Assembly (NCBI GenBank): GCA_032718475.1
Contig: JAUCBJ010006701.1
Location: 67,698-131,697, forward strand
DNA from: Nemertoderma westbladi
Lineage: Eukaryota; Animalia; Xenacoelomorpha
Direction of reading: 5' to 3'
Length of the DNA stretch: 64,000 bases
Shown: positions 8,705 through 59,841 of the stretch, one piece after another
Numbering within the stretch: position 1 is the stretch's first letter
Layout of the letters: every line of letters starts with the position of its first letter
Program-made: the position numbers and the translations under genes
The notes under the pieces: generated by a model
What the model was told of the DNA's origin: nothing
What the model saw: the letters and a program-made list of their open reading frames with translations, nothing else
Databases searched by the model: none

Positions 8705-8774
8705 CCTCTTTTGCAGGTTTCGATGGCTAGTGGTTATCGAGTTTTTATCTGGGGCGGCAGCTGGTTTTAGTTAC

Positions 8775-27514: not shown

Positions 27515-27519
27515 CAGTA

Positions 27520-27677
27520 GCTTTGATGATAAACTTTATTGGGTTAATAAAAATCAATCACTTCCTTGGGGGCACTATAAAACAAACCTCAAAAAACCTA
27601 TAAAAATATCAAATATACCAATTTATGAAGAACCAAAAGGCGATGATGTTGATGATGAATTATCAAATAGTAAATAA
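27520..27677 (+). pseudogene. pPolB extreme C-terminus (part 2)
   Basis: SFDDKLYWVNKNQSLPWGHYK...* resembles the ALSxxDDKR...LPWGHY end of Maverick pPolB. Confidence 0.85.
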
Positions 27678-27947
27678 AAATATAAGTTGTAAGCAGATCA
27701 TTTATGGACTTAATTTAAAAGAATTAAAAAATCAATTGACAGGTAAAATTGTACTCAAACCTAATCAGTTTATATATAAGGTATTTGGTGCAACCATATT
27801 AATGTTTACAAATGGACGAATAACAATTCTCGGTAGAAAATATAATTTTAATAAAGTGAAAAAGCATATATTCGAAAAAACAAACATTAATTTGATTTTT
27901 AAATCAATCAATTTGTGTACTTATATTTTTAGTATCGACACCGTAAT
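27655..27947 (+). CDS. TBP-like protein, N-terminal repeat (interrupted by element C)
   Basis: YQIVNKNISC...LNLKEL...ATILMFTNGRITILG resembles TBP repeat 1 (TALIFSSGKMVCTG). ATG at 27655 overlaps the pPolB stop. Confidence 0.72.
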
Positions 27948-28279
27948 TATTAGAAGAGATACCGTATTCCTACTAATGCGAAGAGACGGTAACAATACCT
28001 GCAATATCCTACTGTAAAGTTTGTGAATCAAATCATAAATCCGACCTTCTCACCAAAACAGTAAACTCTAAGTAAGCGAATATATTGCAGTATCGATCTC
28101 TTATTACCGGTGAGGCAGAAAACAGTTTACGAGCAGACAAACTTCGATAAAACAAAATCCCGCGCAGCGAATCCTAAAATCAGGCTGACTCACTGACGGA
28201 CTAAGAGGCTCGTATACTTTGCCGCGGTGTGATTTATATGGTTGGGCAAAGGGACGCTAGCTAGGTACAGAGGCAGAGA
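27948..28279 (-). repeat. Partial 3' LTR of C (terminal ~332 bp)
   Basis: Matches 56951-57282 with about 1 substitution, then diverges abruptly. Confidence 0.9.
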
Positions 28280-29041
28280 CGAAAACTGCGCACAGGTGAC
28301 TTTGCTCGCAATATGGGACTTGTGGGGCGAGTCACTGGTTTCGTTTGGACGTTGAGAGACGGTGCGACTATTTCCTCGCAAATTCGTCTATTTGGCATCC
28401 CAAAACCTCGACCGATTCCTCGTGACCGATCAGTTGTCACTACAGTTGGTAGAACGTCTGGGAACGCGCGAGAAGCGGACGACGCAGACCCAAGAGTAGC
28501 TTGCGCCCCCTTCTGATCAGCTGGTGTGTGTCCCGATCCTCCTGTTGGTTCTCTAGGAAGCGATACCGTATCCCGAGTAATTCGAATAGTCGGCTCAGCT
28601 CCCTTGCGTTCTTCTATATTTGTTCGTTTCGTTGATTATTATATTATATTAAAATATTGATTGCATATAATTATAAAAGTAACAAAATATATTTCAATGG
28701 CTAAGGGCCAACATTGTCAATAATCCTAAAACAGTAATACTACTATATGATATAACTCTGTAAATACCTATAAAATTGAGATGTGATTGTATGATAATAT
28801 AATAATAGGCCTACAACAGTACCGGTACCAACATACGTAATGCAGTAACACATAGTGTACGGTAAATAAACTATATAAAGCACAACCTACATGTATGCAA
28901 TATTGTATGACTCCCCCCCCCCCATGTTTATTTCTATATTTTTTAATTTTGTTTAGGAATCCTCCGCCTTCAAGTACCGCTACGCTTAAATGGTCAACAT
29001 CTACTGATAGCCTTTTATTGATTGCCCGTGGGCCTAGTGAT

Positions 29042-32000
29042 TTAATGTATAAACTTTCCAAAATCTTCTATATTAATAATTTTCTTTAATTGTTGGCCCA
29101 CTTTCTGGACCCGTATGATCCTACCCTGTCCGTCCTCCCGAGGGTGACGTGCAGACGGCGCAACCGGAGTGGCTGGTATATTCGTCGCCTCTAGGACCTC
29201 CTCTTCCTCGAATATGCTCGCTCGTATACGTTTATGGTAAAACGCGGCTCGGTACGCCCATGCGACGGTTAACCAAGCTCCTTTATTCCGCTTTTCAGTT
29301 CGGAAACGATCGAATTCACCATACGTAATGCGATTAACGACTTTCTGAAAATTCCACGTGTTTTTGTTATCCGGGTGAATCTGTAGTAGATACTCGCGCA
29401 CTACTCGGAATCCACTGTCGTGGGGCAAAATATCGACTACCTCGATAAGTTCGTCATATTGGGGCATAGCGGAGATATATCCTTCCGACATCATCGTTTG
29501 GGGATTTACCCGTTTGGGCGCCCTCATCGGAAACCGTCTTCTTTGCGCCGATACATGTTCGTCGGCTAAATCTTCCCACTCATCGAATAATTTTCTCACG
29601 AGTTTTACAGATTCGTGTTCATAAGGTATGTCTCTTAGTTGGCATTCAGATGCTCGATGCCCTTTTATATTGCAATAAGTACATTGAGCCATAAATCTCC
29701 AGCAAGTATAAAAGGTATGAGACCCTTGATCTCCACACCATCCACAGATTAGCTGAGTCGTAGTAATGTGCTTTCCACTGCACTTGGTCATATGATGTCC
29801 AGCGACGCCACATTTACTACACATCGTATTGGCAGGGTACCACACTCGTTCGTATATAAGATCTCCAATCGGTCGAGCGCTTCCTCCCACACTATAATCG
29901 TAATCATCTGGATCTATGGGTTGGTAGGTTTCTGAAGGTTGTATACAAACTATAGCATCTGTTGCTTCAAGTTGTCGAATCTCCGTCTGAGATTTCTTCG
30001 GGAGGTTCCTTTCTATCTCAAGAAGTTCCTCTAAAGGATCGTCAGCGATCGTAGTAGTTACTTCGAAATCATCACCAAGGTGACCGATAGGCGCGCGCGT
30101 CTGCCGTGATTCATCCGTAATCTCCACGATACGTTCTCCTTCATAGGGTAACAATGTAAACATAGATGGTCTTTCGATAAGAGATCCCGCACAGCGAAGA
30201 TACACGTCTCGAAATATACTAAATCCTGCTCGAGTAAAGGCATTACACTGAGCGTCGGAGTTGTAGAAGGGTTCAAGGAATCGTCTAAACACGTCGGTAT
30301 GAATTCTCCCTTCCATGTAGAACGTATGATCTTCTCCGAGACAAAGTGGATGTCTTTTGAGAGTCCGAGACACAATGTCGGCGATTAGGCAAACATTCAC
30401 TGACGACTCTATTGCTAAATAATATTGTAGGACCGCTCTTGGAGGTGACGTAATAGCCCAATACACGCATCCTCTCCATTTAAGCTGTGATTCAAACTCA
30501 CTCATATCTGGAGTATCACCTTCTCCATAAGTCTCAATATACTTGTTTCTCTTACTTTCCTTATAATCCCAATTGAATAACAGGTAGGAAATGTATCCAG
30601 TTCCAGTCTTCTGAGTATTATACTCACGAAAATATCACAGACCACAAAATCATAGACCACAAAATAAGAGGTCGAGTGTCGACGTAAGGTGTCGGTAGTC
30701 GGTCATCGCTGTCCGTCATGCCGGCGAAGTCGCTAATTAAGTCCTCCCTTACTCCTGATCCAATCTTTACAACAGTTTTATCTAAAATCATGTTTCTTAC
30801 CATCTTCGGTAGCATTCTAGCGTCGATATTACAAGCTTGGTCCATCTTCTTTACTATGTCAGTGATAAGATGGTGTCGCTTTGTAGTCGCTGGAGGTATC
30901 GGCATTCGTTTGTCGCTCCTCTGTCTACTGAAAACGTGCAGGACTCCGTCCGCCGCTCTAATTTGTATAGTCTTAGAAGTCAAACTCTGCTGATGACTGC
31001 CGCCCTCGTTATCGTAAAACATGTAACCATTTTCCTGAAACGATCTAAACGTTCTATTCCATTCATCCAACAATTCTTCCGAAGGTTGCCAAATCTTCTC
31101 ATTGTCCTTATCATCTTCGAAACGAATAACCTTACCTCGCCAATCTGCAGCAATATCTGTATCCGACTCGAAGGTTCCGGTTCCAATCCATAAACGAATC
31201 GTCTTGGTTAAATATCCTTTCAAATTACTCGGAGCTATATCGGCACCAGCTCTATCCAGTTCCTTAAAGTCTTGAATATGAGGTGGAACGTTGTACACGA
31301 CCTTTTGAGTAATATGTCTACGTAAATCATATATCTTACTCATATCGCTGAAAACAACTGCAGGAAGAAACTCCAAGTTTGAAATGATTTCTGGATGATC
31401 CACGATGGGTATTTCGTTCGTCGTATCCTGTCGGACTGGTATACTAATAGGAAAATTGAGTGTCGTACTCAATGGTTTCGTAGTTGAAGTACTATATGGT
31501 TGCATTTCTCTTGTCCTCTCCGGGGATGCAATCTGTAGTCTCTGAATAACGTTTTGAGCAAAGTTTATGCTCTCGAAAACTTCCGGTGTCATCTCCTTAG
31601 CTGGAGTTTGATCGTGTGACGTCCAATGGTAAGGTAGGCTCGCGAGTCTTCCGCCCCATTCTTCCATCTCACCTTTCTCGAAAGCCTTGTAGGCTCTGTA
31701 TAGGCTAAGAGCTTCTTTCTTTTCGCGGGTTGACTGATTTGCCTCGTCCAGCATAAGTTCAAATACATCGGGTTCAACAACCTTAGGTGGGTAAACGACA
31801 ATTTCTCCCGCCTTTGGTCCGGTCATAGCAAATGAATGATATGGGTTCGATAAAGGATACCCTCCTTCCTGGTAGCGTAGTTGTTGATGGTTCGAACACC
31901 TCGCCAATATCGGTTCGGGATTTTCCTTATTCAAACGCATTGGAATCGCATTTCGTTGTTCGCGCATACAAGAACCGCATTGATAATAAAGTTTATAAAC

Positions 32001-32423
32001 TGAAAATGCTTCCTTGGTTTCTCTATCGTCCCCTCGAGTTCGTCTGTAAAGGTGCATTCCATCGAATTCGTCTCTTACCGCGGGCATAGGTTCGTGCGCC
32101 TTTAGGTATTGCATGGTATGATACAAACGACTAATTTCAGTATCGGGGTCTTCGCTAATGTCTCCCGTATCACACAAAGCGTCGTACGGGTAAAGTTCGT
32201 TGAAGGTTTTGCGCAAACTTTCGATTCTTTCGTTTAATGCATTTTGTCTTCTCTTTAATACATTCGAGTCATATTTAGTTCTCGCGAGTTTCGCTGTACT
32301 TTCCGATAATTCCTTTATACCAAATATAGTGTAGTCCTTGGCTCCAAATCTTTCGAATGGCGCTGCTGCCTCCTCTTGGATATCATATCCCCATCTCGGC
32401 TCTCCTTGTATCCCTTTCTCCAT
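29042..32423 (-). pseudogene. C extra ORF (~1130 aa): novel N-terminus + 3'-5' exonuclease + 3 CCHC knuckles; one frameshift near 30630
   Basis: FYDNEG, IQIRAADG, LPKMVRNMILDKTVVKIGSGVREDL, YVDT, YYLAIE; CSKCGVAGHHMTKC, CGWCGDQGSHTFYTC, CTYCNIKGHRASEC. The bridging frame IFREYNTQKTGTGYISYLLFNWD aligns with B. Confidence 0.82.
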
Positions 32424-33082
32424 AATTAGGGGTGTAGTTACATAATCATTACTACTAGAGGGAATACAACAGAGTTTGTAGTTAGTTGTGAGGAGACGTG
32501 AGAGTTTCGTCTGCCCTTTGGGCTCGACAACGCTCTAACCTCCTACCCATAGCCTAAGATCTAGGGTTTCTTTAATGACACGCTGCTTCTTATCTAAAAT
32601 TTTTTGCCGAAATAAAAACGAATTTGGGCTAAACTGGCTGTGAGTCTAAAATACTCACTTTTTGATCCCAAACTATTATCAGAAAATAAGCAATCAAGAA
32701 TTAGTAATAAATATAGGGGAGTCTATTTTGACGTAACTTATTGAAACAAGACCGTGTAAAATTTAATTAAAATTTTAAGAAAGGCTCGCAAGTCTTCCTC
32801 TCTTGTTTCTCTAATTTTAAGTTCCACCCGACTGTACCCTGAAATCTATTCACTGGAGAAAATTTTAAAAATTTTTCAAATCCAAATGGATTGTCTAAAA
32901 TTTCGAAAATGTCTCAATATTGTGAGTTCCAAGTAGAATTCCATTTCTTATACCTACAAATCCCGCTCCTATGTGACACATAAGGGTACCACCCTCAATG
33001 TTCACATATAAAGACAATGGAATTCTACCGCTGTCCTTACTACGGTGTACAGGTACGTGGAAATCTATTTGTAAACTCCTAA

Positions 33083-40367: not shown

Positions 40368-40905
40368 TGTGACGGGCTCCAGGAGGGATCCCGATTTATC
40401 CGATGTGGTAATTTAGTCCACGCGTCCCCGCCGTGTATAAGGGTGAAATAAAGTGACTGAGTTCTGAAGTTCGGTGTATAATAATAATAGGGCATAGGAT
40501 ATAGATATAGATAATGTGTACAAGGCGGGATACGGTAACTAAAGTCCCGTGATCCCCTAACTAAACTAATTGGCTGTACCCTACGCTAGCACTGCTGCAC
40601 TGAGATAACTGCATCACTGATTAATAGGTTATTGGTTATATTGCACGGTGGCCTTACTGCTACTCAATCGATGCCGTTCCCCCCTCTGATTGGTTAATAC
40701 CCTTGTTGGCGCCCCGTGGAGTATTCCCGTTCACTCCACCTGTTCTCTCTGGGTTAGGGGTTTGGCCCCTGACCCTCTGTTGTGTGCTTCCTTCCCACTC
40801 TTATTGGGAAGGCACGAGTTGGTTAATTGCCCAATCTCGTGGCTCCCAATATTGCTTATCGGCTAATAACTTTATGGGGTGTTGGCGGGATTGAATAAGC
40901 TAACA
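40368..40905 (-). repeat. 3' LTR of A2
   Basis: TGTGACGGG...GCTAACA, homologous to 54144-54691. Confidence 0.95.
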
Positions 40906-40943
40906 CTCCCCCCCATGCTATCTTCCCGGTAAGAAGATAGCAT
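40906..40943 (-). promoter_or_regulatory. Polypurine tract of A2 preceded by a perfect 11-bp hairpin
   Basis: Minus strand ...GGGGGGGAG|TGTTAGC; inverted repeat ATGCTATCTTC (40915-40925) / GAAGATAGCAT (40933-40943). Confidence 0.8.
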
Positions 40944-41609
40944 CAACCAAAAAAAGTGCGCTACAATCCCGCTGGATCCCGATCTAGTATCGGGTGTGGG
41001 GTGGAATTCTTTTCTCTTGGAGCCGGCTTTCCAGGCCGCCCCCTATGGGTATGATAACGCTACCCTGTGTGCCTGGCGTCTCATGTCGGGCCGATCGCGC
41101 TCACCTCTTCACACGACTTTTGTTTCCCCAACACTTTCGCCCTATCTCACCTTCACTCTCACCCTAACTCTCTCACATTCGGACCTCCTCGTCCCTTACT
41201 CAGCCTCTTATTCCCCCCCCCCACACTGGAATTGCATCGGCACTCTCTCCGCACTCCGCACTATTATTCCGTCCCTCAACCTCACATCGACTGTCTCTTT
41301 CCTTCTGACGAATCTCCCCCCCCTCTCGTGCCGTCGCACTCAAGAAGTGTGAAATTGTCTGGCGTCTCGTCCATAGTGCCATAGTCAGTTATCCCCCAGT
41401 CCCACTAGCTAGTTGAGAAAGGTTGTATGACTATAGTACTTACTCCGATCGTGTATTTTACTGCTAATTACTACGTATGTACATACGAATTGCACTTATA
41501 TGGTTATTTGCATTAATTAAATTTATACTTAATAGTTCGTACGTTACATGCGGCGCCTTCCAGGCGCACCACGTCCCAGTCTCAGCCTCATTCCCTCGCC
41601 TCCGGGAAC

Positions 41610-44153
41610 TTATCTGTACCTCCTCACGTCCTCCTCCCTGGCCCGTTTCTTGGTTATCACCGCTCCTCTGGCATCATCCGCTTTCTGCTTCCGGACCTTT
41701 GCCGCCACTTCCTTGCTGATCCCGGTCGTCGGCTCCTTGGGCGCTGGTGTTATTAAAGCCCGATACCGCTTCGCCGGTGGCCCCTCAGAATGGCCTGGTT
41801 GTTTCCCTCGTGTGGCGTCCCATAGGATCATCTTCATTGCCTTTGGTACGTGTTCCGCCAAGAAATCCCTAAACTCCCTCCGGTTCTCTGGTGTCCACCT
41901 GTCCAGGTACCGTTGCGTGTTCATAACTCCGGCGAACGATGCCGCCGTAGCTACCTCTTGATAGGTAAACGGTAACCTTCGCTTTATGATTTCCATGTGG
42001 GTCTCCTGGTTTATGAGGAAGAAACCCCACTTGAACTCTTGGGCCTTCATGCGCTGGCGCGTCATGGCCCCGACGTCGGCCCACTCCTCGAACCTCGTGA
42101 ACTTCTCCTCGTCGCTCATCCAGTCGCACTCGCGCCCGTAGTGTCCCCGAAAGTGGCACTTTGGACATCGGTTATGCAACCGTGGACACGCCCCCATCCT
42201 GTGACTTGGTTCTCTACAATAGAGACAAAAGGTTCCCCGTTGGAACCGGTATAGGCAGCTGCTTTCCTGATGGGTCTGCCTCCCACAGTAGTCGCAGCCG
42301 AGTACCAATGTCTCGCGTCCCACCTCGTCCTTCGTCCCAAGCGATCTCCGCGGTCTATGGAGTCGCTGGTAGGCAAACTTCTCCACGTTGCTCTCCCTGT
42401 TTACGTCGATCTCTCCGCCCCTCTCGGGCATCGTCTCCCCGAATACTATCCGTGGTGCCGTCCCCGGTTGCTCGCCCAACCTGATGGTGCTCCCCGCGAA
42501 ATCCATCGCCGGCCCCTCGTGCACCCAGGTCCGCTTGCCGGATCTGTTCCAGAAGGCCCTCGCCCCACTGGCCGTCACCACCCTTCCGCCAACCCAGTCC
42601 GTGTCCGAGTGGCCTATCCTTTCGATGGGCGGCATCTCTCCGAACTCGTCGTCGTCGTCCTCCTCTTCTGGTAGTGTCTCCAATCCCGGTATCCCGATGG
42701 ATCCACTATGTCCCTTCCCGCCTTGGCTCTCGCCCGTAGCTCTCCATCCCTCTAGCTCCCTTAACTTCCTTGGCGGTTGGTCGCCCTCGGCGCCCGCTGG
42801 TATGGGCATCGCGTGCAACCCCGACGTCGACTGTTTCGGCGATCCCACCGTCCATCCCAATTCTCGCCCTAGAGACTCCCCCGAACTCCCCGACGAAGTC
42901 CAATGAAGTTCGTCTAGGCCCGCCTGTTCCTCGAAGCCGTAACTCTGTGCCCTGGCCTCCTCTTCCCTCTCCTCTGCTTCTATCCTCTCCCGTCTAGCGA
43001 CTTCTTCCAGTCGCTTTGCTTCCCGTCTATCCATCTCTAGCTGCTCCCATCTCTGATACGGTGTATCCGTCTCCCCATCTACCAGATGTCGGCTGTTGTA
43101 GTACACCGACTCGCCCTTCAGCCCCGGGTGGTCTACCAGACCGTCAAAGGCCGTCTTAAAGGCTCTCCTGTAGCTTAGGGGTGATCCCGATAACAGAAAT
43201 GCCCCTGGTTCCCTCTCGATAACTACGGTCATGAATAAGTTAAGTAAACTTATCATCATCCAGTCCTCCTGCAGGATATATCGCTTCTGATATACCTTTA
43301 TCGCTCCTCTGCGAAACTGATATACCTCCTGCTTTCCCGGTCTCGCTCCCCACTTCAGCGAGTTCGCTAGTTCTGCTCCGTATTCTTCCCTAAACTTCCC
43401 CCAATCCATCGGTTTGTGGCATACGAGCCCCAATAATTGGCCCATCGCCACCGCCCCGCATTGGCCTGTGTTCTCGACCACCCCCAATCCATCCGGTGCC
43501 GTCATAGCCATAAAGACTTTCTGCATGTCCAGGAGGTTGGTGGCGTCCGGACCGATGATCCTCTCCGCATCCTCGCGAATCGCCGATCCCACTTTCGTCG
43601 TCGACTTCTCTCTTACTAAGACTTGTACCGCTTTCGGCAGTCGGTCTAATTTCGGCCCGTCCTTCTTCCCATACGTCCCTAGATCGAATAAGAAGATGTC
43701 CCCATTCGGCGCGGCCAAATGTAGGAGTATGGTCCTGGCCGACCCTGCCGTTCCTCGCCTTGAACCCGCTTCGTCTTCCACGGTTCCCTCGTCATCTAGG
43801 ATCATATATCCTCCTCTGTTGACGGACTCTATGAATCTTTTCCAGTCCTTCCTCGGCGATTCCCTCGGGTACTTCGGAATCCCGAACTTCGCTTCGTCTC
43901 CTTTCACCACGTAGTGGAAGTGTTGGAAGATCGCGTTGTCCAGCGACGGCGTCCCGTAGGTCCCGACCAACCGCTGTTCGTGCGCCTCCCGGAAGTGATC
44001 CTGCAGCGCTCGTGCCGCGTGACCCCTTTCCAACCTCTCGTAGTATCCTCTCGTCTTCTCCTCCGGGTGTCTTTCGGTGAAATCCACCAATATTTCTTTT
44101 CCTCCTGACTCCGCCTTTCTCTTCCTGATCAGCTTACTCGCCATTCCGAACAC
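41610..44153 (-). CDS. A2 extra ORF (847 aa, intact): WRN/Mut-7/RNase D-like 3'-5' exonuclease + 3 CCHC zinc knuckles
   Basis: MILDDEG (ExoI), ILLHLAAPNGDIFLFDL, LPKAVQVLV..TKVGSAIREDA (ExoII), LLDMQ, RYILQED (ExoIII); CDYCGRQTHQESSC, CLYCREPSHRMGAC, CPKCHFRGHYGREC. Confidence 0.85.
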   Translation of the reverse strand: MFGMASKLIRKRKAESGGKEILVDFTERHPEEKTRGYYERLERGHAARALQDHFREAHEQRLVGTYGTPSLDNAIFQHFHYVVKGDEAKFGIPKYPRESPRKDWKRFIESVNRGGYMILDDEGTVEDEAGSRRGTAGSARTILLHLAAPNGDIFLFDLGTYGKKDGPKLDRLPKAVQVLVREKSTTKVGSAIREDAERIIGPDATNLLDMQKVFMAMTAPDGLGVVENTGQCGAVAMGQLLGLVCHKPMDWGKFREEYGAELANSLKWGARPGKQEVYQFRRGAIKVYQKRYILQEDWMMISLLNLFMTVVIEREPGAFLLSGSPLSYRRAFKTAFDGLVDHPGLKGESVYYNSRHLVDGETDTPYQRWEQLEMDRREAKRLEEVARRERIEAEEREEEARAQSYGFEEQAGLDELHWTSSGSSGESLGRELGWTVGSPKQSTSGLHAMPIPAGAEGDQPPRKLRELEGWRATGESQGGKGHSGSIGIPGLETLPEEEDDDDEFGEMPPIERIGHSDTDWVGGRVVTASGARAFWNRSGKRTWVHEGPAMDFAGSTIRLGEQPGTAPRIVFGETMPERGGEIDVNRESNVEKFAYQRLHRPRRSLGTKDEVGRETLVLGCDYCGRQTHQESSCLYRFQRGTFCLYCREPSHRMGACPRLHNRCPKCHFRGHYGRECDWMSDEEKFTRFEEWADVGAMTRQRMKAQEFKWGFFLINQETHMEIIKRRLPFTYQEVATAASFAGVMNTQRYLDRWTPENRREFRDFLAEHVPKAMKMILWDATRGKQPGHSEGPPAKRYRALITPAPKEPTTGISKEVAAKVRKQKADDARGAVITKKRAREEDVRRYR

Positions 44154-44656
44154 TACACTCGCTCACCTGTAGGGTGGTGCCTTACCAAGGCGCAATACAG
44201 ATGAGTGATGTATTAAGATGTTTCGTACAGTTCGATAATGGCCTACTTTTCTACTTAACTGCGCCTTTCAAGCTTAATTTAATCTAATTAATTTCGGAGC
44301 TAGTAAATCAGCCTAATTTACAATTTCCGTCCGTTACTTTTATTATGTTCTAGAACGACTTTCTTTGTGTTACCACTATTTTCCGATTTTAGCCCTATTC
44401 TATTTATTTGTTTATTTTGCTTTGATTCTACTGTCCTACTACTTACTACTGCCTATGGATTTATTCTATTCTCTCTCTGATCCATATTCTGGCCTACTCA
44501 GTGGGCCTATGCAGTACAGCAGTATGCGTCGTGTGGCCACACGATTTATCCAGCTGCACTCATATGCCCCCCTCTCGCTACTAACTCTACTTACTGCTAA
44601 CTAATATCTATATCCTATTTACCCCTTTTACCTCTTACTCTCTCTCTCTAACTAAT

Positions 44657-45515
44657 GGTACTACGTACCCTCTAACTCTAACTCTAACTAGGTACTACGT
44701 ACCTACCAACTCTCTAACTATCGGTACTACGTACCCTCTAACTCTAACTCTAACCAGCGGTACTACGTACCCTCTAACTCTAACTCTAACTAGCGGTACT
44801 ACGTACCTACTAACTCTCTAACTAACTCTAGGTACTACGTACCTACTAACTCTCTAACTAACTCTAGGTACTACGTACCTACTAACTCTCTAACTAACTC
44901 TAGGTACTACGTACCTACTAACTCTCTAACTAACTCTAGGTACTACGTACCTACTAACTCTCTAACTCTAGGTACTACGTACCTACTAACTCTCTAACTA
45001 ACTCTAGGTACCACGTACCTAGTAACTCTCTAACTCTAGGTACTACGTACCTACTAACTCTCTAACTCTAGGTACTACGTACCTACTAACTCTCTAACTA
45101 ACTCTAGGTACTACGTAACTACTAACTCTCTAACTCTAGGTACTACGTACCTACTAACTCTCTAACTAACTCTAGGTACTACGTACCTACTAACTCTCTA
45201 ACTCTAGGTACTACGTACCTACTAACTCCCTAACTCTAGGTACTACGTACCTACTAACTCTCTAACTCTAACTAGGTACTACGTACCTACTAACTAACTA
45301 ACTCTAGGTACTACGTACCTACTAACTAACTAACTCTAGGTGCTACGTACCTACTAACTCTCTAACTCTAACTAGGTACTACGTACCTATTAACTAACTA
45401 ACTAACTAGGTACTACGTACCTCTTAGCTAATTTCTGCCTACTAACTCTCTAACTAACTCTAGGTACTACGTACCTACTAACTAAGTAACTAACTCTAGG
45501 TACTACGTACCTACT
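44657..45515. repeat. Array of ~25 units (mostly 32-36 bp) with the hairpin TAGGTAC-TAC-GTACCTA, between pol and the extra ORF
   Basis: Directly visible; linkers are variants of CTAACTCT. Confidence 0.92.
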
Positions 45516-45632
45516 ATGTACTATTATTTTTATTTTATTTTTATTTTTATTTGTGTGGGAAGGGCGTCTCGCCCTCAATCCCACCCCCCTCAGTCCAAAA
45601 CTTGGACGACTAAACTTCACTCTAACTCCGCT

Positions 45633-48600
45633 TTAAGGTGCCCCTTCTAGAAGACAGCATTTACCTACCGCTCTCCTGTAGGTTTTTCTGTCCTTCGCAC
45701 CTATCTTTCCACCTATCCGCACTTCTACCGATCGGACTCTTCCGTCCTCGTCGGAGTAGGTGCCTACAACTCTCGCCAACCGCCACTGGTTGTTGATGAT
45801 AGTATCATCCGTGACGATTACGAGATCTCCCTCTCTTAACTCCCTGTTCGGCTTCCTCCACTTGCTCCGCTTATGGAGTGTGGGTAGGTATTCCTCTACC
45901 CACCTCCTCCAGTATTCTGCGCTAATTGCTTTAGCTACTTTCCAACTTTGGCGGGAGTGTATATCATCTGGGTCTACACCCCGCATATCGATGGTCGCTG
46001 GCCTTTCCATCAGGAAATGGCTAGGTGTTAGCACGTCTAATGACTCAGGGTCATCATTCTCTGGATATAGCGGTCTGCTATTAATGATCCCCTCGCACTT
46101 CGCAAGTACTGTCCGTAAGACGTCTTCAGTGACCATGTGGGTGTTCATCAGCTTCGTCATTAGACGTTTTGAACTGCCCACCAGTCTCTCGACGCATCCT
46201 AGTGTATGTGGTGCATACGGCGTCCTTCTCTCCCACTTCACTTGTCGTCTTCTCATGGCCGCCCTGACTTCTTCTCCCTCCAAGATGTCTAAGGCCTCTG
46301 CCATCTCACTCTCTGCGCCCACAAAGTTGGTGCCGTTGTCGCTATATATCACTGCGATCGTCCCACCTTTGCGGTCCCTAAACCTTTCTAAGGCGTTAAT
46401 GAATGCTGATGCGGTTGCATCTTGGGCGAGTTCTATCCCTACCGCCCGCGTATTGTTGCATACGAAGATAATACCGTAGCGTTTCTCCGTGTGTCGCATC
46501 ACCTTGATCTTTATCGGCCCGAACATGTCCACACCGCAATGCGTAAATGGCGGGTCGTGCTGTCTTACCCTACTCGCCGGTAGTGGCGCCATCTCCTGTA
46601 CGGCTCGCTCCTTCTTCGCTCGTCGGCAGGTCTGGCACTGCCCCACTACCGCTTTCACCTTCTTCCTTAGTTGTTTGACCCAATAGGTCCTCCTTATCTC
46701 TGTGAGGGTTCGGTTGGTGCCCCCATGCAGTATCGATTTGTGGGAGTCCCATATGATCTGGTGGACTATAGGCGATCCTGTGGGAATGATGATGGGTTTC
46801 GGTGGCACGACTATACTGTTGTTATATCCCACCCTAGAATTCATTACTAGAATCCCATCCTCGTTGAGTTGTGGCGACAGCGTGATCAACTCGCTATCCC
46901 GTCGGAGGTGCTGTTGGTTACCGACGCGTTCCACCTCGTCGCCGTAGTTCTTGCGTTGTTCATAGCGGATCACTGCCTTGGCCGCTCCTTCCAGATCTAT
47001 GGTTATCCTGGTCTTCTTGTCCTTGCCGACTCCCGCAAGGAAATTCCCAAAGGCTCTCCAGTACGCCACTAGTTTCTTGGTCTTATACCAACTGGAACTG
47101 TAGCTGAGGAGTTTATCCGTCGGGTTGTCGCACAGTTCCCTTCCTGGTTGCACGTCCCTAATCTCCCTCACCATCTGGGAGTATATCTCTTCTCCCTCTG
47201 AATCTCCCTCTTCTCCTTCTGATACTGGTTCCGAGCCCGGGTCCACCTTCCTCATCGGCGGCCAGGCCTCTCTATCGCTCAGAAATTGTGGCCCATGTTG
47301 CCACAATACTTCCTTCTTCAGGAAAGTGTGGCGTTCCACGCCCCTCGACAGCAAGTCCGCTGGGTTCTCATCTGTTGGGCAGTAGTGCCACCTTTCCAGT
47401 TCTGTGCTCGCCCTTATTTCGTCCACTCTATTCGCGACGAATATCGGGTATCTCGTCTTTTCGTTGTGTAGCCAACCAAGCACTACCATGGAGTCCGTCC
47501 AGTAGTGTGTCTCCACTATGTTGGGAATTGTATCCACTAGGTAGGCTGTGGCTCTAACTCCTAGTCTCGCAGCTGTCAATTCTAACTTGGGAACAGATGC
47601 TGAATCTGGCGGCGTTGACTTAGCTTTGCTAAAGGCTAGTCTGGGCTTGTGAGGCCCCTCTCGTTGTACTAAATAGAGTGCCGCTCCGTATGCCTCTAAC
47701 GACGCGTCGGAGAACATATGTAGGTCCAGATTCGTCATGTTCCCGTCCGGGAAATACACTCGCGGCATGTTGTATGTTCCCATCCTCTCCAAGTCTCCTG
47801 TCCATTTGCTCCACTGTTTCTTGATGTCTTCTGGTACCTCTACGTCCCACTCATCCTTCAACTTATATACTCTCTTGAGTATCTGTTTCCCCGTGACTAG
47901 TAATGGGGATGCTAGGCCTAAGGGATCGTATATCCTTGCTATATACGATACGTAACCCCTCTTCGTATGGGTGTCTGCGCCCTCCTGGCTCAGCTGATAC
48001 TTCAGTTCGTCTGTTTTTCTATCCCACACGATTCCCAACGCCTTCTGCTGGGATTCCGTTCTCTTAATCGCCATGTCCTGTCCTTTGGCTGTTGTAGGGT
48101 TGTCCATGGTCGATTCTGGTTTCTTGTCTTCTATTTCCCTGATAAATTCTTCTGAACTGGATTGGAATTTGGTCAGGTTGAAGCCGGATCCTTTCAGGAT
48201 GTCGCGAACCTCGCGCCCTGTTTCCAGTATCTCCTCAACCGTATTTCCAGACTCCATGCCGTCGTCTACGTAGAAACCGCGTCTGATCATATCGACGGCC
48301 CTACTGCTGTATCTATCTTCCTTCCCCTTTACCGTGTCTCTCACTGCCATAGTCGTCGTAAATGAGGACGACTTGGCCCCCATATTTTGTACTACCATCT
48401 TATATGCCGGTATTATAGGCGGTTCTTCTTCGCCGTTATACCATAAGAAGCGTTGACTGTCGCTATCTTCCTCTGTTACTCGGACTTGGTTGAACATGCC
48501 TTCTATGTCACACGTGAAGGCGTGTTTCCCATTCCTAAATCTAAGTAGTACTTCTATGCCCGAATTGTATATGTTTGGGCCCTCTAGTAGGTAATCGTTT

Positions 48601-51600
48601 AAGCACTTTCCGTCGGTCTTTGCCGATGCATCGACTACCATCCTAAGTTTACCTTTCTTTGGGTCTAAAGCTACGTGGAGTGGCAGGTAGTATGTCCTGT
48701 CCGTGTTCGGTTCGTCGACCGGTAACTCCACGGCCCATCCTTTCTCGACGTACTTCTTAATGGTTTTGTGAATGTACTCGTTCTTCTCGGGGCTCCGTTG
48801 TAGTGTTTGTTTCAGCTTGCGGAGTCTCGTGAGTACCATCCCTCTATTATCGGGTAGCGGTATCTTCGGTAGTTTCCATACCATTCCTATTGTATACCGC
48901 CCCTCATCACACGTCATCGATTCCTCCACACTTTGTAGAGCCTGCTTGTCTTCTACCGAGGTCCCGACCCCGGTCTCTTTCAGTCCCTCGAAGTCCTGTC
49001 TGAGCAGTCTTTTAAGCTGCTCCTCTGCTCCCTCGTCACCCATTTCCTGCATTGTTCCCGCGAACATGCATCCTGATGTCTCCGACATCCTGAATGGTAT
49101 CTTGCTCTTAATTGGACCACTCAGCGTCCACCCGAATGGCGTTAATATGGCCACCGGGTCGCTCTGCTTGTCTTCGCCGAAGACCGTCTGCATTCTCTCG
49201 TGGGCCGTTGGGCAGTCCATGCCTACTATGATGGATACCTTCCTAACGTCCACGTCTGGGATTGAGAAGTCAATGTTGTCCAGGAATTTGTATTGCTCGA
49301 CCTCGATGTTGGTTGGCCGCCTGGCATTGATGTTAATTGACTCTATTACTTGGATGGGGTCGATGGTTGCCCCATAATCGCATCCTGGTGCCACTGCTGC
49401 AATTGCGCACCGTCCTGTCCTCATCTCTAGGATCTCGTCTTTGCTAGAGATGGTTGTCACCGCCATCCTGCTTGGCCTCGTTCTCAACCCTATTTCTTCG
49501 GCTACCCATTCCTCAACTAATGTGAAGGCAGCTCCACTATCAACCAGCATTAGTGTTGTTACTGATCGATTGCCTTCCCCGATCACTCGTACTGGTACTA
49601 CTCCAAGTAGCACTGTTCCTCTCTTCTTCGCCCCTACTGTGCTCGTTGCCATCGTCTGGCCTCTCCTTTGGCCAAACTTGACCGGTTTCTCTTGGCATTC
49701 CCTGGCCTTGTGTCCACTCTTCACACATCGCGAGCAGATTTTATTGCTCGACGCGTAATCTATCTGGTCTTGCCTCGGTAGCGCCTGCCAGTACCTGCAG
49801 TTCATGGTTTTATGAAGCGCATTTGCGTGTAACTGGCATTTGCTCTTTGGGTCATAGCCCTCTTTATACAATGCATTGCGTATCGCAGTTATATTCGTAC
49901 CAAAGTCCCTACTATTCTTATTGACTGGGTTTGACCTACTGGACGTACTGGGGTTATGTTTATTCATGTTGTTATTGTTCCCCTGTCCGTCCCTTGATGT
50001 TGTCTTATCTTCGTTTGTCTGTGGACTTGCAGTCCCCTGCGTCGCTGCGTATGGCAATGATTGTCTGAGCCTCGGCAATGCGTTTGATGTATTGTGCTCT
50101 GGTTTGGGCCTGTAATGATCTGTCTTTGGTCCCTTTCCCAGGCTATCTTCACTATAGACTGGGTCCGTTATTAGTTCAGCCTCGTAATTTAAGAAGTTTG
50201 ACATTTCTTCTAAACCTGGTTCCGCACCCTTCTTGTCTCGGGTGGAGAAAGCGATCTTCCTCCATTTGTTGCGCAGCCAGCTCGGTAGTGCCTGCGCTAT
50301 CGTGGTGATGTTATTGGACGCGTTGAGTTCGTATGGCGCGTCTAGCGTCTTCAGCACGATCAGCGCCTTCTCGACTTTGTTAGCAAACGTCTTAATGCTA
50401 ACGGGATTATCCTGTAGGCCACCCGATGTTATGCCTCTCAGCGTTTGCCTGATGATCTTGGCCGGGTGCCCGTATTCCCTATCCAGTGCCCGCCATGCTG
50501 TCGTGAAGCCGCCCTCTATTCCCTGGTATTGCCTCACGATGTCGTATGCTGGGCCTCCCGTGTACACTTGTAGATACTTTAGGCACTCCGCCTGCGTCAA
50601 GTTTTTTGTTAGTATTTCGTTACTATACATTCGCCGAAACTGCAAGTATTCTTCCGGCCTGCTCCCATCGAATTTGAACGGTTCCACGGGTGGTAATTCG
50701 ATCCTCGTTTTCAACGCATCGATCAACGTGGCCATCCCCATTGCCTGCGCTTCTAATGGATTCGACGGATGCTGTATAGTTTCCCCTGTCTGGTGCGGTT
50801 CGTCCGTCCTATTTCTTGATCTTCTCTGACTCGGATATGTCATCGGGGGTAGCGGCCCCCTCCATATGTCTGTATCACACGACCTGTTTTCGTCCAAGGG
50901 TTTCACTGTTCTTGCTACCATCGGGGTATATTGTTGATATTGTGATGGGGGAATGTCACCCTGTCCCCCCCCCCACCGGTATGTCTGGTACTGGGGTTGA
51001 TGTTAATACGTTGGGGCCCATGCACCTATCCGCAATAATTCCCCCCTCCCCTGGGTATATGTTATGTCCCTGCATGCTGTAGTCATACTGCTGTGCTGGT
51101 ACCGGTATAGGCCTATCAGCTTCTGGCCTACTCGCCGGTATGTATTCCGCGACTTCCGGGTTTAATCCCGTTGTCCGCGCTATCCTATCGCCTACATTGC
51201 CTCTCTCAGTATGGCCTACGGTATGTGCAGTAAGACCTACAGTATGCCCTACAGTCTGCATGTGTTGCTCGGGATCGAAGTTTATTCTTCTCGAATAATC
51301 CTCCCCGCGGCTACCGTATTCTCGATCGGTAGGTACATTCCGTCGGAAAGTTTCTCTTCGACCCCCCTCTCTACTGTTCTCTTCTTCGTACCGGTACATC
51401 GCGTACCCCTCTCTCGGCGTGTAATGCGTCTCACCGGATCGCATCCCTCCGGGGCGACGGCAATCTCCCGGAGTCCGACCCCACTGACTCTCCGTTCTCA
51501 TCTCGATTACCGACGGCTCGCTGTCCGTCCTCGCTCTTCTATCGTTTGCGGCGATACTTCTACTACTCTCTTCCTCTCTTCTCCTATCAGTGGAATATTC

Positions 51601-54064
51601 CCGCTCACGAGATCTCTCGTCGACCTCCCGGTTAAACCCCACTGTTCTTCTTTCCTCCTCTGATCGGGCTCGACGCTCCGTCTGCCCTCCCGCGACGTCA
51701 ACCTGTCTTTCTCTGCTCGATCGCACGTCGCTGGGGATACTCGCAATCCCCCTATTACTTTCCGTCGCCGGTTGTTGCGGTTTACCTTGTTCGGCCCTCG
51801 CATTGTCCGCTGACGGCTGTGGGACACTCTCTGCCCCCCCCCCTCTCGCCGCTAACTCTCTGTTGTGGGGCCCTCGTAGCCCCCCCCCACTCGCTACATC
51901 TAACTTCGCTACCTCTCTCCCCGCCATTATATACCTCTCTAGTCGACACATCAACCCTACTACAGTCGGGTCTATTTACCCCCCCTCTCCCTCTGCTATT
52001 GCGTGGCCTTCCAGGCCCTCTACTCCCTGCCTACCAACTACGTGGCCTACCAGGCCCTCTGCTCCTTGTCTACTAACTACGTGGCCTACCAGGCCCTCTT
52101 CCGGCTGGTTATGTAGGCCCGACGTGTTCACATTAATAGCACCCATATTGGAAACGGAATTAATTTGCTCGTTCGAAACAAAATCATTCGTATTATTCTG
52201 CGCGACTACGTTATCTGAATTATTTTGTAAATTCGGGCATGGATCATTATTTAAATTATTTGGATTATTTTGCGTAATCGCGTTATTTAGATTATTTAGT
52301 AAGTTCGAATTTGGGTTATTATTTTGATTATTTAAATTATTTTGCGTAATTACATTAATATTAGAATTATTTTCTACATTAATACTAGGATTGTTCTGAT
52401 TTAAATTTAAATTACTACCACTAGGTAAAGTATTTCCTGCAATAAAGGTTTGATTAGAGTTATCCCATACGGTACTATTAATATCAACAACTTCTACTGT
52501 ACCATCATTATTACCCCCCCCCGCCCGTACGGTCACACCAGTTTTGGGTCTGTCGTGCGGTCCCTGTCAGTGGGGTATTAATAAACGTATCTAGGGCCCC
52601 CGGGTCCTCAAAAATACTCGAGCCGGCCCCGCTTGCAGACGGCGACGCTTGCGCCAGTCGCAGCTCGTGCGCCCGTCTAATCTTATGTTCCGCAAGCACA
52701 CTTTGGCGTCTCTTTATTTTCTCTTGCTCTCGCTCAGCCTCTGCCCTTCTCTTCTCACACTCCTGGGTGTCCCGACTGCCCGACTCTACTATACTCCTAG
52801 CGCTCTCCCTTCGTCTCGCCTCACGCTCTTTGCGTTCCTTTTCCCTTCTCGTCTCATATTCCTTGCGTTCCTTTTCCCTTTTTGCCTCACGTTCCCTGCG
52901 TTCCCCGTCCTCCCTTTCCTCACGCTCTCTGCGTTCCCTTTCCTCCCTTTCCTCACGCTCTCTGCACTCATTTTCCTCTATTTCGTCTCTCTCCCTAAGG
53001 CTTCTCAAAGCTCTTTCGACCCTCTCTCCGGTCTCCTTAATCAATTCCGCTTCCCTCATTAACCGCACTCTCCCCTCCTCTAACCGTTCCTCCATTTCCT
53101 TCTGACCTTGCTCTACCACGTTGAGACGGTATGCGGCACCTATCTCTCTCACCACTCTTCCTTTCGCGGAGGATGTAGCAGACTTATCGGTTGCGACGGA
53201 CCCCCTCCGCCTTCCCGACCTACTAACTTTCCCCCGCTTCCCGGAACTTTCTCCGACCGACGAGGCCGAATCCTCGCGGTTAACCTCGGATTCGCCCCCC
53301 TCAGGTCCCCTCCAACCCACTGGTTTTACTCCCCGGGCATCGACCAAGTATGGCCCTATGTACACTGGCGCTACGCTAGGTTCCATACTCCCACACTCCC
53401 ATAGTTCAAACAGTTCGCCTGCAATTCCCTTTGCTCTCTCCCCGGCTAGTTCTCTCTGCCCAAAACGTATCAGGTAATTTAAGTGTCTGTCCGACTCACC
53501 TAGTCGCTTTCTCAGTCTCACCTCGTCTACCTTCGCCCCTTGCTTCTTGGCGTCGTTTATCAGCTTCCGGGTCGCGTTGTAGGCCCGTCGAAGTCGGTCA
53601 GAAACCCCGACGTCCTCGTCGCCGACCTCTCCTCCGTCCCTCCGGGTCCGACGTCGTACCGGCGGCTCCACCGTCGCCGTTCCGGTGGGCCGCTCGTCGC
53701 CCTCGGCCTGTAGCTGGCCGGCGACATCGGTACCGATCTCTCCTCCGTCTCTTCGCGTCCGGCGTCGCACCGTCGGCCCCACCGTCGCCGTTTCGGTGGG
53801 CCGCTCGTCGCCCTCGGCCGGTAGCTGGCCGGCGACATCGGCGCGCCGTTCTCCGTTCCGTGTCGACTCATCTCCTTCTCCCTCCGTCTCGCTCTCCCTT
53901 TCCCTCTGCTCGACTTCGGGTTCCAGACCCTCCTCGTTCTGGACTTCCGGTTCGCCCGTTATCGATGGCTCCGGCGTCGTGGGCCTGTATCGCTTGGTCG
54001 CGGCCTCGCGGATCGTTAGGTCTTCGTCCGGGGTCCGCGGCGGTGTCTCGCCCGATTCACTCAT
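45633..54064 (-). CDS. gag-pol: A2 gag-pol (pieces 52511-54064, 51976-52536, 50956-51954, 45633-50921; breaks at poly-C runs)
   Basis: 45633-50921 is an uninterrupted gag core-PR-RT-RH-IN frame (LVDSGA, FYVDD, FSDAS, HKSILH..CQTC, GVDMFGP/SDNGTNF/VERL). Upstream breaks coincide with homopolymers at ~52514, ~51980 and ~50965. Confidence 0.92.
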
Positions 54065-54143
54065 CTCGTCTGCTCGGTGGAGTTCGACTAGCTAGCGTGG
54101 GGTTCTTTGAGTTTAACTAGGGCGGCAGCTCGGATTTAGTTAC

Positions 54144-54691
54144 TGTGACGGGATCCAAGAGGGATCCCGATTTATCCGGTTGTGGTAATTTAGTCCACGC
54201 GTCCCCGCCGTGTATAAGGGTGAAATAAAGTGACTGAGTTCTGAAGTTCGGTGTATAATAGGATAGTTCATAGGATATAGATATTGTGAATGTGTACAAG
54301 GCGGGATACGGTAACTAAAGTCCCGTGATCCCCTATCTAAACTAATTGGCTATTATCCTACGCTAGCACTGCTGCACTGAGATGACTGAATCACTGGTAA
54401 TAGTTACTGCCAAGTGGCTATACTGCACGGTTGGCCTTACTTACTACCTCAATCGATGCCGTTGCCCCCCTCTGATTGGTTGTTACCCTTGTTGGCGCCC
54501 CGTGGAGTATTCCCGTTCACTCCACCTGTTCTCTCTGGGTTAGGGGTTTGGCCCCTGACCCTCCGTTGTGTGCTTCCTTCCCATTCTTATTGGGATGGCG
54601 CGAGTTGGTTAATTGCCCAATCTCGCGGCTCCCAATATTGCTTATCGGCTAATAACTTTATGGGGTGTTGGCGGGATTGAATAAGCTAACA
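54144..54691 (-). repeat. 5' LTR of A2
   Basis: Homology to the other A LTRs; adjacent TSD. Confidence 0.95.
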
Positions 54692-54696
54692 ATTGT

Positions 54697-56141: not shown

Positions 56142-58429
56142 TTCGGTAGTTGTAAGTCAAGTAAAGTGAGTGTCAAAGTATCAAACTTACCGTATTTTAT
56201 CTAAACGGTACTAATTACAGTCATATAAAATTAGCCTACCGGCCGATTTTATAGCAGATGGATAAAATTAGCCTAAACGGCCAATTTTACAGCAAATAAA
56301 TGTCACGGAATAAGTATATAATAAAATTAGCCTAGCGGCCAATTTTATAATAAATAAATCGGATAACGATATGCGTTATCAAAAGGTAAATTAAATACAA
56401 TAATTACGGACTAATTCAGCAATGAACAAAGAAATCATACGGAATGCATAAATACTTGAGACAGTGGAACCCACAATAATTTTAACTAATACGGTAATGC
56501 CTAACTTATTTATGCAACTTTTCGAACTCACCCACTCCAATAATTCTCCAGAAAAACAGATTCCCACATACAAACCGGACGTGAACCTTTCCGTTTTCAG
56601 CGTTGCGGACGAAACGCGATTTTCCCAACCAAAGTTGTTGAGTTATCTATCTCCCAAACTTGCTAATCACGGTCTTGCTCCCGTTACAGTCTAGAAATGA
56701 GTTCTGAATCCTGAAAAACAAAAGAGTTAGGTTTTGCTTTTACGAAAATTTTGTACCGGTACAATATGGTATTTAAACCCTTTTAAACACCGGTATTCAA
56801 TTCCAAAAATATTTTACACGCGGTTCAAATCAAATTTTATTTCAAAAAATTAGCACTTAGCTAATCAAATATAAACTTTTACCTCAAAATACAAAATTTT
56901 CAAATAACTTTAGTCCTACCGAACCGTAGTTCAGTAAAACATATTCCTACTATTAGAAGAGATACCGTATTCCTACTAATGCGAAGAGACGGTAACAATA
57001 CCTGCAATATCCTACTGTAAAGTTTGTGAATCAAATCATAAATCCGACCTTCTCACCAAAACAGTAAACTCTAAGTAAGCGAATATATTGCAGTATCGAT
57101 TTCTTATTACCGGTGAGGCAGAAAACAGTTTACGAGCAGACAAACTTCGATAAAACAAAATCCCGCGCAGCGAATCCTAAAATCAGGCTGACTCACTGAC
57201 GGACTAAGAGGCTCGTATACTTTGCCGCGGTGTGATTTATATGGTTGGGCAAAGGGACGCTAGCTAGGTACAGAGGCAGAGATTTGGAGATGTCTAACTA
57301 GCGGGCAAAACACAGTAAGGACGAAAGTTAATTTTATATATTTTGAGGTGTAAATAATTTCTAACGCGCGTGTGTTAATTCTGAACGGTCAAAAGCAGTT
57401 TTGCTCCTTCACATATATAATTACTGGGTACGGTGTGCATTTTACGAATATTCTAATTTTGTAACTTGTAGGTCCAATACTCACGAATGATAAGGTTCCT
57501 TCCCCTCTTGCGTATTTCCAGGACTCAAATTCAGGCATAAGGTTAATGCTACGCCCAGAATTCGGCAATTTTTAATTTACCAGGCCCCTAATACTAAGAA
57601 GAAATGTGTTAGTTTACTACAGTAGGCGTACGGTTACTAATAGCTATCCTGGCTCTTGTCTAGAATTTTAGTCACCTAGGTAGGCTGGGTAACTTCCTAT
57701 TAGGACGTTGGCGGGGACACGGTAGATGTTAGTATATCCCTAATAGCCTCAATTTATTTGCGCCTAGTTGTAAACTGCCCTACCGCCTGAACGGTACAAT
57801 CCCAATTCAGGTGAAACACAACGACCCTCCTAGCCTACAAGTTCTAATGCAATGGACACCGTTGTACTGCAAATAGTCACAGACGCACCTGCACTTAGCA
57901 AGAGTTAGGCGTACAGTTTGCTGCACCCTACCAATGTGTATGCCTTGTACCGGTGTGCCTACGTCCTATCTGCGTACTAGTATCTGCCTGCTCTCCTCCC
58001 CCCGTAGGAATATGAAGGTCTACTGTGGTTTTTTCCTGAATCAAGACAGTACAGTCCCTAAGATGTAATTTTAGGCTCACAGCTTGTCACTACTTCTACC
58101 TTTGATCTTTGGTCTTACGCTTAGGTAGCAAGGCGTCGAACGCTGTCTAACCTTTCAGGCGATGGGCGAATAACTAAGGTGGTATTGCGGGTTGTCTCCT
58201 GTCTACATTCCTTTGATGTTCCCGTTCATTGCTGCGGCCCGATCTCTAGCCGGCCATCCTGTTCCTAAGAGTGTTCACCGTAGTGAATCATGGTGAAAAG
58301 AAAAGCAGATAGCGGTATTTCTGAATTTATTGCAGATAATAATACAAAATGTAATCTGAAAACTAATGACAGAATAAACAAGATTGAGTAACTAATAAGA
58401 TTAGATAGATTGCACTGAGATTGAGAGAT

Positions 58430-58464
58430 TGAGATAACTAATGAACGAAATCGCACCTTTTATA
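58430..58464 (-). promoter_or_regulatory. Putative Pol II core promoter of C (TATAAAA + Inr-like TTAGTT)
   Basis: Minus strand TATAAAA (58464-58458) ~25 nt upstream of TTAGTTATCTCA. The A1 LTR has the same AGTTATCTCA (TCAGTTATCTCA, ~9000-9011). Confidence 0.55.
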
Positions 58465-58670
58465 CCAAATTTGTGCCGCAATCAATCGAGAAATTCTCGA
58501 TTGTTCTATAGGTTCTAACAGGTTTTTAAAGATAACTATTGGTCCAGCGAATATATAACTTGCACGACATTGGTTACAATCTAATAACTACAGTCTCATT
58601 GGTTAATCTAGGTACAGACAAATGCAATTTAATTTGTAGCGGTTAATTTAAATGAGTTGAAATTCTGCAC

Positions 58671-58757
58671 AAAAAATAATTCGCACTTACTAGGATTCGA
58701 ACTCAATACCTACTACACATATAATTTCCAACGCTCTACCGACTGAGCTACTGAACC
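58671..58757 (-). ncRNA. Degenerate tRNA-like Pol III unit inside the C LTR
   Basis: A-box/D-arm TAGCTCAGTCGGTAGAGC, B-box GAGTTCGAATCC, then a T6 run. The acceptor stem does not pair. Confidence 0.6.
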
Positions 58758-58890
58758 ACTTGACTAATAGGCGTACAATAGATATAACAAATACAAATGA
58801 GGACTCAAAGCAATCTTTTACAAAGTTAATTCGAATAAAATAAAAATTTTGAAAATCCACGGCATTTAGAGAATATAATTCTATAGTAAT

Positions 58891-59137
58891 CTATAGGTTA
58901 CTTATAAACAATATCAGGTTTTATGTTATATTTGATAATGTTAAACTAGAAATTTCATACGACCCCGAAATATTCAATAACTGTAAAGTCAGAATAAATA
59001 ATATTGTTGTTGTTTGCTGCTTCTACACTGGTAAATGTACATTAATGTGTTCCCCGTTTAAATTTCATATATATTATCCTATATTCAACAAACTGGTTAA
59101 TAATTTATTATTGTTTGGTGGTGGGTTTTTGATGTAA
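58891..59137 (+). CDS. TBP-like protein, C-terminal repeat
   Basis: In-frame continuation IYRLL...ISYDPEIFNNCKVRINNIVVVCCFYTGKCTLM resembles TBP SYEPELFPGLIYR...LIFVSGKVVLT. Stop at 59135-59137. Confidence 0.72.
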
Positions 59138-59841
59138 AATATAATTAGTGAGAGTGAAATTTATTGTTGTTGTTTGGTGGTGGAGATTTTTTACTGTAAA
59201 ATATATATATTAAATTGGAAGGAGAAGAAATTTATGAATATTTTTTTTTTAAATCAACAACTAGTTGGGGAAATTAACTAACTAACTTCGGTAGAGCGAT
59301 TGCTTGTAACACTCAAGTATGCATAGTATACTCAGAGACAGTAGCTAGCTAGCTAGCTAAGCATCGCAGCTCACGAGTGAGCTACAATAGCGCATCTGTT
59401 ACTTATGAGTGTGTGTGTGTATGCAGCGGGCAACGCTAAGCTTGGTGAGAAAAGTTTAGGGCTATGTACTGGTATTCGTAGTCAAAGTCGAAGCCCACCT
59501 ATCTGTTACTAGCCTGTATACCAGTACATATTATTAAAACATCAGCTATGCATTTCCCTACATTCAGAATAGAACAATGGACAGAGCATATATCGCTAAT
59601 CAGCATGGGAAAGGTTTATGTTCTACATTTTGTTAACTATGTGAATTTTGTAATGTAAACATCTGCGACCCACTACAAAAATATATATAAACTCAATTTT
59701 GTTACCCTACTGTAAATAAAAAAAATAAAATACCGGTATATACTAACTTATATTCATACTTGAAAAAAAAACTAACCTCCAAACTTCAGTTCCGGCGATC
59801 CTTCATTTAATCAATCAATCAACCAACATCCAACATCCAAC

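Follow-up and report, generated by a model that had tools for sequence, protein, structure and literature searches.

We analysed a stretch of 64,000 nucleotides (nt) of DNA from Nemertoderma westbladi (contig JAUCBJ010006701.1, referred to here as the window), in which a gene resembling that for the TATA-binding protein (TBP) overlaps the end of a protein-primed DNA polymerase gene, pPolB, and is cut in two by a retrotransposon. We found a TBP-family gene that is under selection and has a fixed place behind pPolB in a repeated element; the copy in the window was later destroyed by retrotransposons. What remains here is a dead copy of the pPolB element, which survives in three pieces and is broken by nested BEL/Pao insertions (Table 1). 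We put at roughly 0.55 the probability that the TBP of this Maverick-like family binds TATA-like promoters of the element and, as seems likely, recruits host TFIIB and RNA polymerase II (Pol II).

The split gene and its uninterrupted copies

A first-pass annotation of the window had described an intronless, stop-free open reading frame (ORF) of ~179 amino acids (aa), hidden by a 31-kb insertion and recovered when this and one copy of the sequence GTAAT are removed. We found this to be so. The insertion, designated C, is flanked by GTAAT at 27943-27947 and 58886-58890, and its removal joins halves of 293 nt and 247 nt into 180 codons including the stop (179 aa), the frames being compatible as judged from the lengths; the peptide motifs quoted for the protein were likewise present in their frames. 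The ATG at 27655-27657 falls inside the last codons of pPolB, as had been claimed, before the pPolB stop codon (TAA, 27675-27677), giving a 23-nt overlap between the two genes in different frames, and the TBP-like gene itself ends with TAA at 59135-59137. Further in-frame ATGs lie upstream at 27625, 27643, 27646 and 27652. The variants listed among the public contigs touch 27643 and 27646 and spare 27652 and 27655, and the choice of 27655 as start is therefore supported to within one codon.

The stretch is contained in four public sequencing runs; three are DNA (X1, X2 and X3), X4 is guessed to be RNA, and the DNA run that covers the stretch best may derive from the sample that gave the window. 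In three of the four (X1, X3 and X4), contigs depart from the window at 27948 and resume as window sequence at 58892; the mirror junction, at 58886, is present in an X4 contig. Contigs from the same three runs depart at 27515 and continue as the sequence near 9663-9690, so that copies lacking insertion B, which splits pPolB, also exist. The overhangs at these junctions were short, with medians of 19-68 letters, and of 138 letters at the mirror junction, but they came from three studies with two organism labels. Uninterrupted junctions were found in organism A (two studies) and in organism B. Two contigs span the overlap of pPolB with the TBP-like gene (X3 record 21, 27582-27791; X4 record 30, 27515-27794), and the uninterrupted pPolB-TBP copies whose search had been suggested are thus present.

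It can be seen that the X3 contig depth across the overlap is 10,833, as against 73 at a small ORF downstream (59708-60055), and each run contained hundreds of diverged variant contigs, at high depth in the three DNA runs. Contig depth does not equal copy number; the observations nevertheless fit a multi-copy, high-copy family in host DNA. At least ten variants could be counted in the frame read as TBP only, two of them sharing one codon. Nine of the 10 variants listed were at codon position 3 (p 3.6e-4) and eight were silent, against 0.19 expected (p 6e-5). As the listed variants are mostly third-position and silent, we take them as a sign that the TBP-like frame has been kept under purifying selection.

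Resemblance to TATA-binding proteins

The two halves of the gene were scored separately. PF00352 was the best Pfam family of each (E 0.0064 and 0.009; 16.7 and 16.3 bits). Our reference set held 67 archaeal and two eukaryote-like TBPs, and a profile made from the archaeal proteins ranked the halves first and second among 645 ORFs of the window (E 0.00076 and 0.099), a score that was matched by none of 1000 shuffles of either half. An atlas comparison gave PF00352 as the best set for the 5' half (score 0.91, 29 of 30 matches), with a low recognition value that makes this result weak if taken alone. When the halves were laid lobe on lobe to make a profile, the sole match at E<=10 in 177,635 Protein Data Bank (PDB) sequences was a TATA-binding protein (1mp9, E 0.024). 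Since each half matches TBP and the halves are contiguous in natural copies, the chain contains two direct TBP-domain repeats, in agreement with the repeats noted by the first-pass annotation. Taken together, these results support the view that the gene encodes a protein of the TBP family.

In alignments to natural TBPs, four Phe are kept, in PNQF and LMF of repeat 1 and PEIF and CCF of repeat 2, together with two Asn (IVN and SIN); all four Phe correspond to DNA-contacting residues of TBPs, and we read the pair of central Asn in the same way. The acidic loop YDPE aligns with YEPE of natural TBPs, Asp replacing the first Glu and the second Glu being kept, and its acidic residues presumably occupy the TFIIB-contact positions C.L3.2 and C.L3.4. 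The protein is short and basic, with no N-terminal extension and with a shorter strand region in repeat 1. Compared with cellular TBP and PF00352, it shares the two repeats, the four Phe, the two Asn and the acidic loop, but each half is below the family cut-off, the Thr-Gly is altered, the repeat-1 strand region is shorter and the repeat-2 loop longer, and the gene is intronless and multi-copy.

Proteins resembling TBP are established for large dsDNA viruses, and in Ravarani et al. (2020; PMC7221094) the Phe at position L5.1 is described as the key DNA contact. In our reading this is probably the Phe of IFxSG, which is kept in both lobes here. The relic protein further resembles those viral TBPs in its two-lobe core, its lack of an N-terminal extension and its strong divergence. 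Unlike them, it belongs to an integrating element of small size, for which the window shows neither an RNA polymerase nor a TFIIB gene, and unlike many of them it keeps acidic residues at both aligned TFIIB-contact positions (PMC7221094).

Neither half alone retrieved a TBP from the PDB with phmmer, and searches among longer proteins with each half gave no relative. Scans of viral contigs with the 3' half, the pPolB piece and the 159-aa ORF (Table 1) gave nothing, and the same scan with the 5' half gave one weak match of 35 residues (L001). Against 1.84 billion representatives the 5' half had two matches, both of them unrelated repeat proteins, which we rejected.

The element and the proposed role of its TBP

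The polymerase was assigned through its relatives. The region 9310-9513 used as query gave 13 proteins among 30 candidates, of which 11 carry PF03175. These relatives align in order, to 9325-9687 (E to 1e-18) and then to 27516-27581, and because they run across both pieces of the window in order the two form the C-terminus of one pPolB. Judged by this alignment the polymerase is a PF03175-type pPolB, an assignment that covers its C-terminal ~180 codons. The left edge of the first piece is the long terminal repeat (LTR) of a BEL/Pao element ending at 9305, and in the window copy a stop codon interrupts the frame at 9514-9516, with the frame broken again near 9690. The 17.8-kb insertion B inside pPolB is a second split of the same relic, beyond what had been described for it before.

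We compared the relic with 81 related loci, namely one viral contig and, out of 475 loci confirmed in metagenomes, the 80 that ranked highest with the polymerase of a relative; 56 of the 81 have at least 700 nt downstream. Related pPolB loci carry an rve integrase (some with a chromodomain), an A32 ATPase and weak matches to double-jelly-roll proteins and adenain, and this set of integrase, ATPase, capsid and protease genes is that of Mavericks and adintoviruses. The element itself is likely to be of the Maverick/Polinton type, and the proposal that such an element carries its own divergent TBP was supported by the class of its pPolB and by the linked TBP-like gene in natural copies. No locus of the 81 matched the TBP or the 116-aa and 159-aa ORFs that follow it (Table 1). 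Their 184 Met-started ORFs of at least 100 aa contained no PF00352 at E<=0.05 (best five families per protein), and no ORF among 1727 from these loci matched the archaeal TBP profile better than E 0.98. As no TBP was found in these loci, we regard it as cargo of a lineage and, in line with the first-pass annotation, not as a core gene among the related loci tested. Two other kinds of gene were noted in this material. Two viral contigs (L203, 857-2566; L208, 2572-4281) encode a 570-aa ORF with an N-terminal TBP-like motif region and a long basic C-terminal part, and a Maverick-like locus (L057, 13550-13870) has a match resembling the transcriptional coactivator PC4 (E 6e-05).

Such a gene has more precedent than the first-pass annotation had implied: in the section on non-animal datasets of Starrett et al. 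(2021; PMC8502044), a figure legend labels a TBP for MELD viruses with an adintovirus-like PolB, with no discussion of it in the available text, and the supplement of that paper gave no match when searched for TBP. In the same source Mavericks/Polintons are adintoviruses with the Alpha (PF03175) class of PolB. The relic is like them in its PF03175-type pPolB and in being endogenous and degraded, in what is presumed to be the genome of an animal; it differs in that their TBP is a legend label only, and in that the relic has no hallmark integrase or virion genes in the window. Literature searches, confined largely to open-access text, brought up no article with a Maverick TBP as its main subject, and by term counts the word 'transcription' is absent from the available text of two recent Polinton papers (PMC10748475, PMC11161782). 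A selected, family-wide TBP offers a handle on the control of Maverick genes, through the promoter word, the TFIIB contact and the timing. With it, TBPs encoded by viruses would be known from small integrating elements as well as from large DNA viruses.

We propose that the element family encodes a minimal two-repeat TBP directly behind its DNA polymerase. The four aligned Phe and two Asn suggest binding of the protein to TATA-like promoters of the element, and the acidic loop suggests recruitment of host TFIIB and Pol II; in this way the protein might act as a switch for the element's genes through the host transcription machinery. Recruitment of host TFIIB seems likely because the acidic loop is kept, while it is often lost in viral TBPs that have a TFIIB of their own (PMC7221094). 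As a weak hint only, TATA-type words stand at 27576 and 27599, 79 and 56 nt upstream of the TBP-like start (shuffle P 0.044, post hoc); before the 116-aa and 159-aa ORFs enrichment of such words was not significant (P 0.06-1.0). Taken further, an animal Maverick lineage may have its own core-promoter programme, in which a stripped TBP plugs into host TFIIB and Pol II and bypasses control by TFIID. Such a protein would be the smallest viral substitute known for a eukaryotic initiation platform, and would represent a recurring and as yet undescribed way of timing particle-building genes. We offer this extension tentatively, with the odds somewhat against it.

A number of results weigh against the reading of the gene as a working TBP of a Maverick that uses host TFIIB. 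PF00352 had been expected twice and is indeed the top Pfam family of each half, but both scores are below the curated cut-off of 22.9 bits, and the 3' half had no usable atlas match. Both repeats have an altered form of the Thr-Gly that is normally conserved behind the last strand, and in repeat 2 the loop is longer. A single-sequence model of the 5' half reached a pLDDT (model confidence score) of 52, with elements in the order of a TBP lobe (helix, three strands, helix); with this low-confidence model Foldseek gave nothing significant, and a fold search reached a best Z of 3.5, two TBP-sized chains of initiation complexes being found at Z 2.9 and 2.6. Of the variants listed for selection, one lies in the 3' half. 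When 558 ORFs from related loci were used as queries, the relic was matched only in its pPolB pieces, and the window has no remnant of the integrase, capsid, ATPase or protease genes of such loci; since these hallmark genes left no remnant we infer Maverick membership from the polymerase and from the gene neighbourhood of its relatives. The window also has no inverted repeat pair attributable to the relic, which is cut at 9305 and whose ends are outside view. Finally, most viral TBPs are argued to work with their own TFIIB and not that of the host (PMC7221094), and a TFIIB-like gene could lie in parts of the element outside the window.

This last point leads to the alternative that the TBP belongs to a private, orthogonal system, with an element-specific promoter word and a partner encoded by the element, or that it has no need of TFIIB, an idea put forward for large DNA viruses. 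Nearly all viruses with a TBP-like gene also had a TFIIB-like gene (PMC7221094), the divergence of our protein is extreme, as the phmmer searches of the PDB showed, and most of the element lies outside the window. However, both aligned TFIIB-contact acidic residues are kept, although the first position is conserved in only ~40% of viral TBPs (PMC7221094), and we consider a private system unlikely, if a serious contender. A decoy or a DNA binder with no role in transcription, which competes with host TBP, sequesters TFIIB or attaches to AT-rich terminal repeats while pPolB replicates the element, would be in keeping with the overlap with pPolB, which suggests co-expression with a replication gene, and with a short, basic protein that lacks an N-terminal extension and has altered Thr-Gly motifs. 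However, a protein that retains four Phe, two Asn and an acidic loop at once would be better suited to promoter binding, and we think a decoy or binder of this kind unlikely.

Two further alternatives concern the vehicle and the origin of the gene, and the first of them is compatible with all of these mechanisms. Instead of a true Maverick, the vehicle may be a pPolB element that is non-autonomous or lacks a capsid, or the relic of another midsize DNA virus; the window holds only the polymerase end, the TBP and two unnamed ORFs, and none of these last three had a match in the 81 related loci. Relatives of the polymerase nevertheless have integrase, ATPase, capsid and protease genes as neighbours, and both the great depth and the number of diverged variants are in keeping with an integrating family that is dispersed, which makes this alternative rather improbable. 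That the gene derives from host TBP, as a paralogue or retrocopy that happens to lie next to a fragment of pPolB, or resembles TBP by chance, is suggested by the weak individual Pfam scores. The linkage to pPolB in other contigs at high depth and the shuffles disfavour this explanation, the reading frames of the two genes overlap, their base composition is common to both (GC 0.23-0.28, as against 0.46 in the retrotransposon) and the single-sequence PDB search matched no eukaryotic TBP chain; we judge it very improbable. We retain as the preferred reading an element-borne TBP that would act at element promoters with host factors.

Window layout and neighbouring features

Table 1. Features of the window, with positions counted from its first letter.
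Feature	Position	Strand	Remarks
pPolB, C-terminal ~130 codons	9306-9696	+	found by tblastn with 13 related pPolBs (best E 1e-18)
Insertion B, BEL/Pao retrotransposon, splits pPolB	9697-27514	-	17.8 kb; 5-bp duplication CAGTA
LINE-type reverse transcriptase, nested inside insertion B	16784-18703		
pPolB, last ~52 codons and stop	27515-27677	+	continues the 9306-9696 piece without a gap in alignment to the final motif of relatives
TBP-like gene, 5' half (repeat 1 and the beginning of repeat 2)	27655-27947	+	ATG inside pPolB; Pfam, archaeal profile, shuffles
Insertion C, BEL/Pao retrotransposon, splits TBP-like gene	27948-58885	-	30,938 nt; 5-bp duplication GTAAT
Second BEL/Pao retrotransposon, nested in insertion C	40368-54691		5-bp duplication ATTGT
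TBP-like gene, 3' half (second repeat and stop codon)	58886-59137	+	Pfam, archaeal profile, shuffles
116-aa ORF	59842-60192	+	no family match; depth far below flanks
159-aa ORF	61197-61676	-	same family, high depth; no Pfam or PDB match
19-bp tandem array	61783-63932	.	~116 copies

The window consists of nested BEL/Pao LTR retrotransposons, recognised in the Pfam scan by matches to Peptidase_A17, DUF1759, DUF5641 and integrase; the known range of this group would by itself suggest that the DNA is from an animal. Between them lie the AT-rich remnants of the older element (9306-9696, 27515-27947 and 58886 to ~61780), with a GC content of 0.23-0.35 as against 0.46 in the retrotransposon. Between the terminal repeats there are 3 differences over 775 positions in insertion B and 1 over 332 in insertion C, and because the repeats are near-identical both insertions are recent.

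Downstream of the TBP-like gene, the segment 59699-60243, which contains the 116-aa ORF, had a summed depth ~10-100-fold below that of its flanks in all three DNA runs, and this ORF is likely to be a variable cargo gene present in a minority of copies. From acidic motifs like those of DEDDh nucleases, one might guess that the 159-aa ORF is a DEDDh or RNase-H-like nuclease, but its model was of low confidence, with a best fold match of Z 4.4. Scans of NCBIfam and PHROGs were uninformative. One X2 contig skips 550 nt covering this ORF. The 19-bp array may be a subterminal repeat of the element or an unrelated satellite.

Some features of the retrotransposons themselves were also noted. The ends of insertions B and C are asymmetric, the left repeat being 775 bp and 332 bp long, respectively, and the right end consisting of the same repeat with an extra block of 1434 bp (B) or 1603 bp (C) that reaches the target duplication; either both left LTRs are truncated or these families have an unusual terminal layout. 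Insertion C has the termini TA...TA instead of TG..CA. Three BEL/Pao elements have long additional ORFs between the integrase and the 3' end (10466-12757, 29042-32534 and 41610-44162, all on the minus strand), which match no Pfam family except for a weak zinc knuckle, and those of insertions B and C resemble each other when judged by eye. At the left of the window, an inverted partial copy of the end of insertion C (80-1393) is fused to an 85-92% copy of the nested element (1398-9305), an arrangement which implies a deletion or rearrangement beside the site where the remaining polymerase gene was lost.

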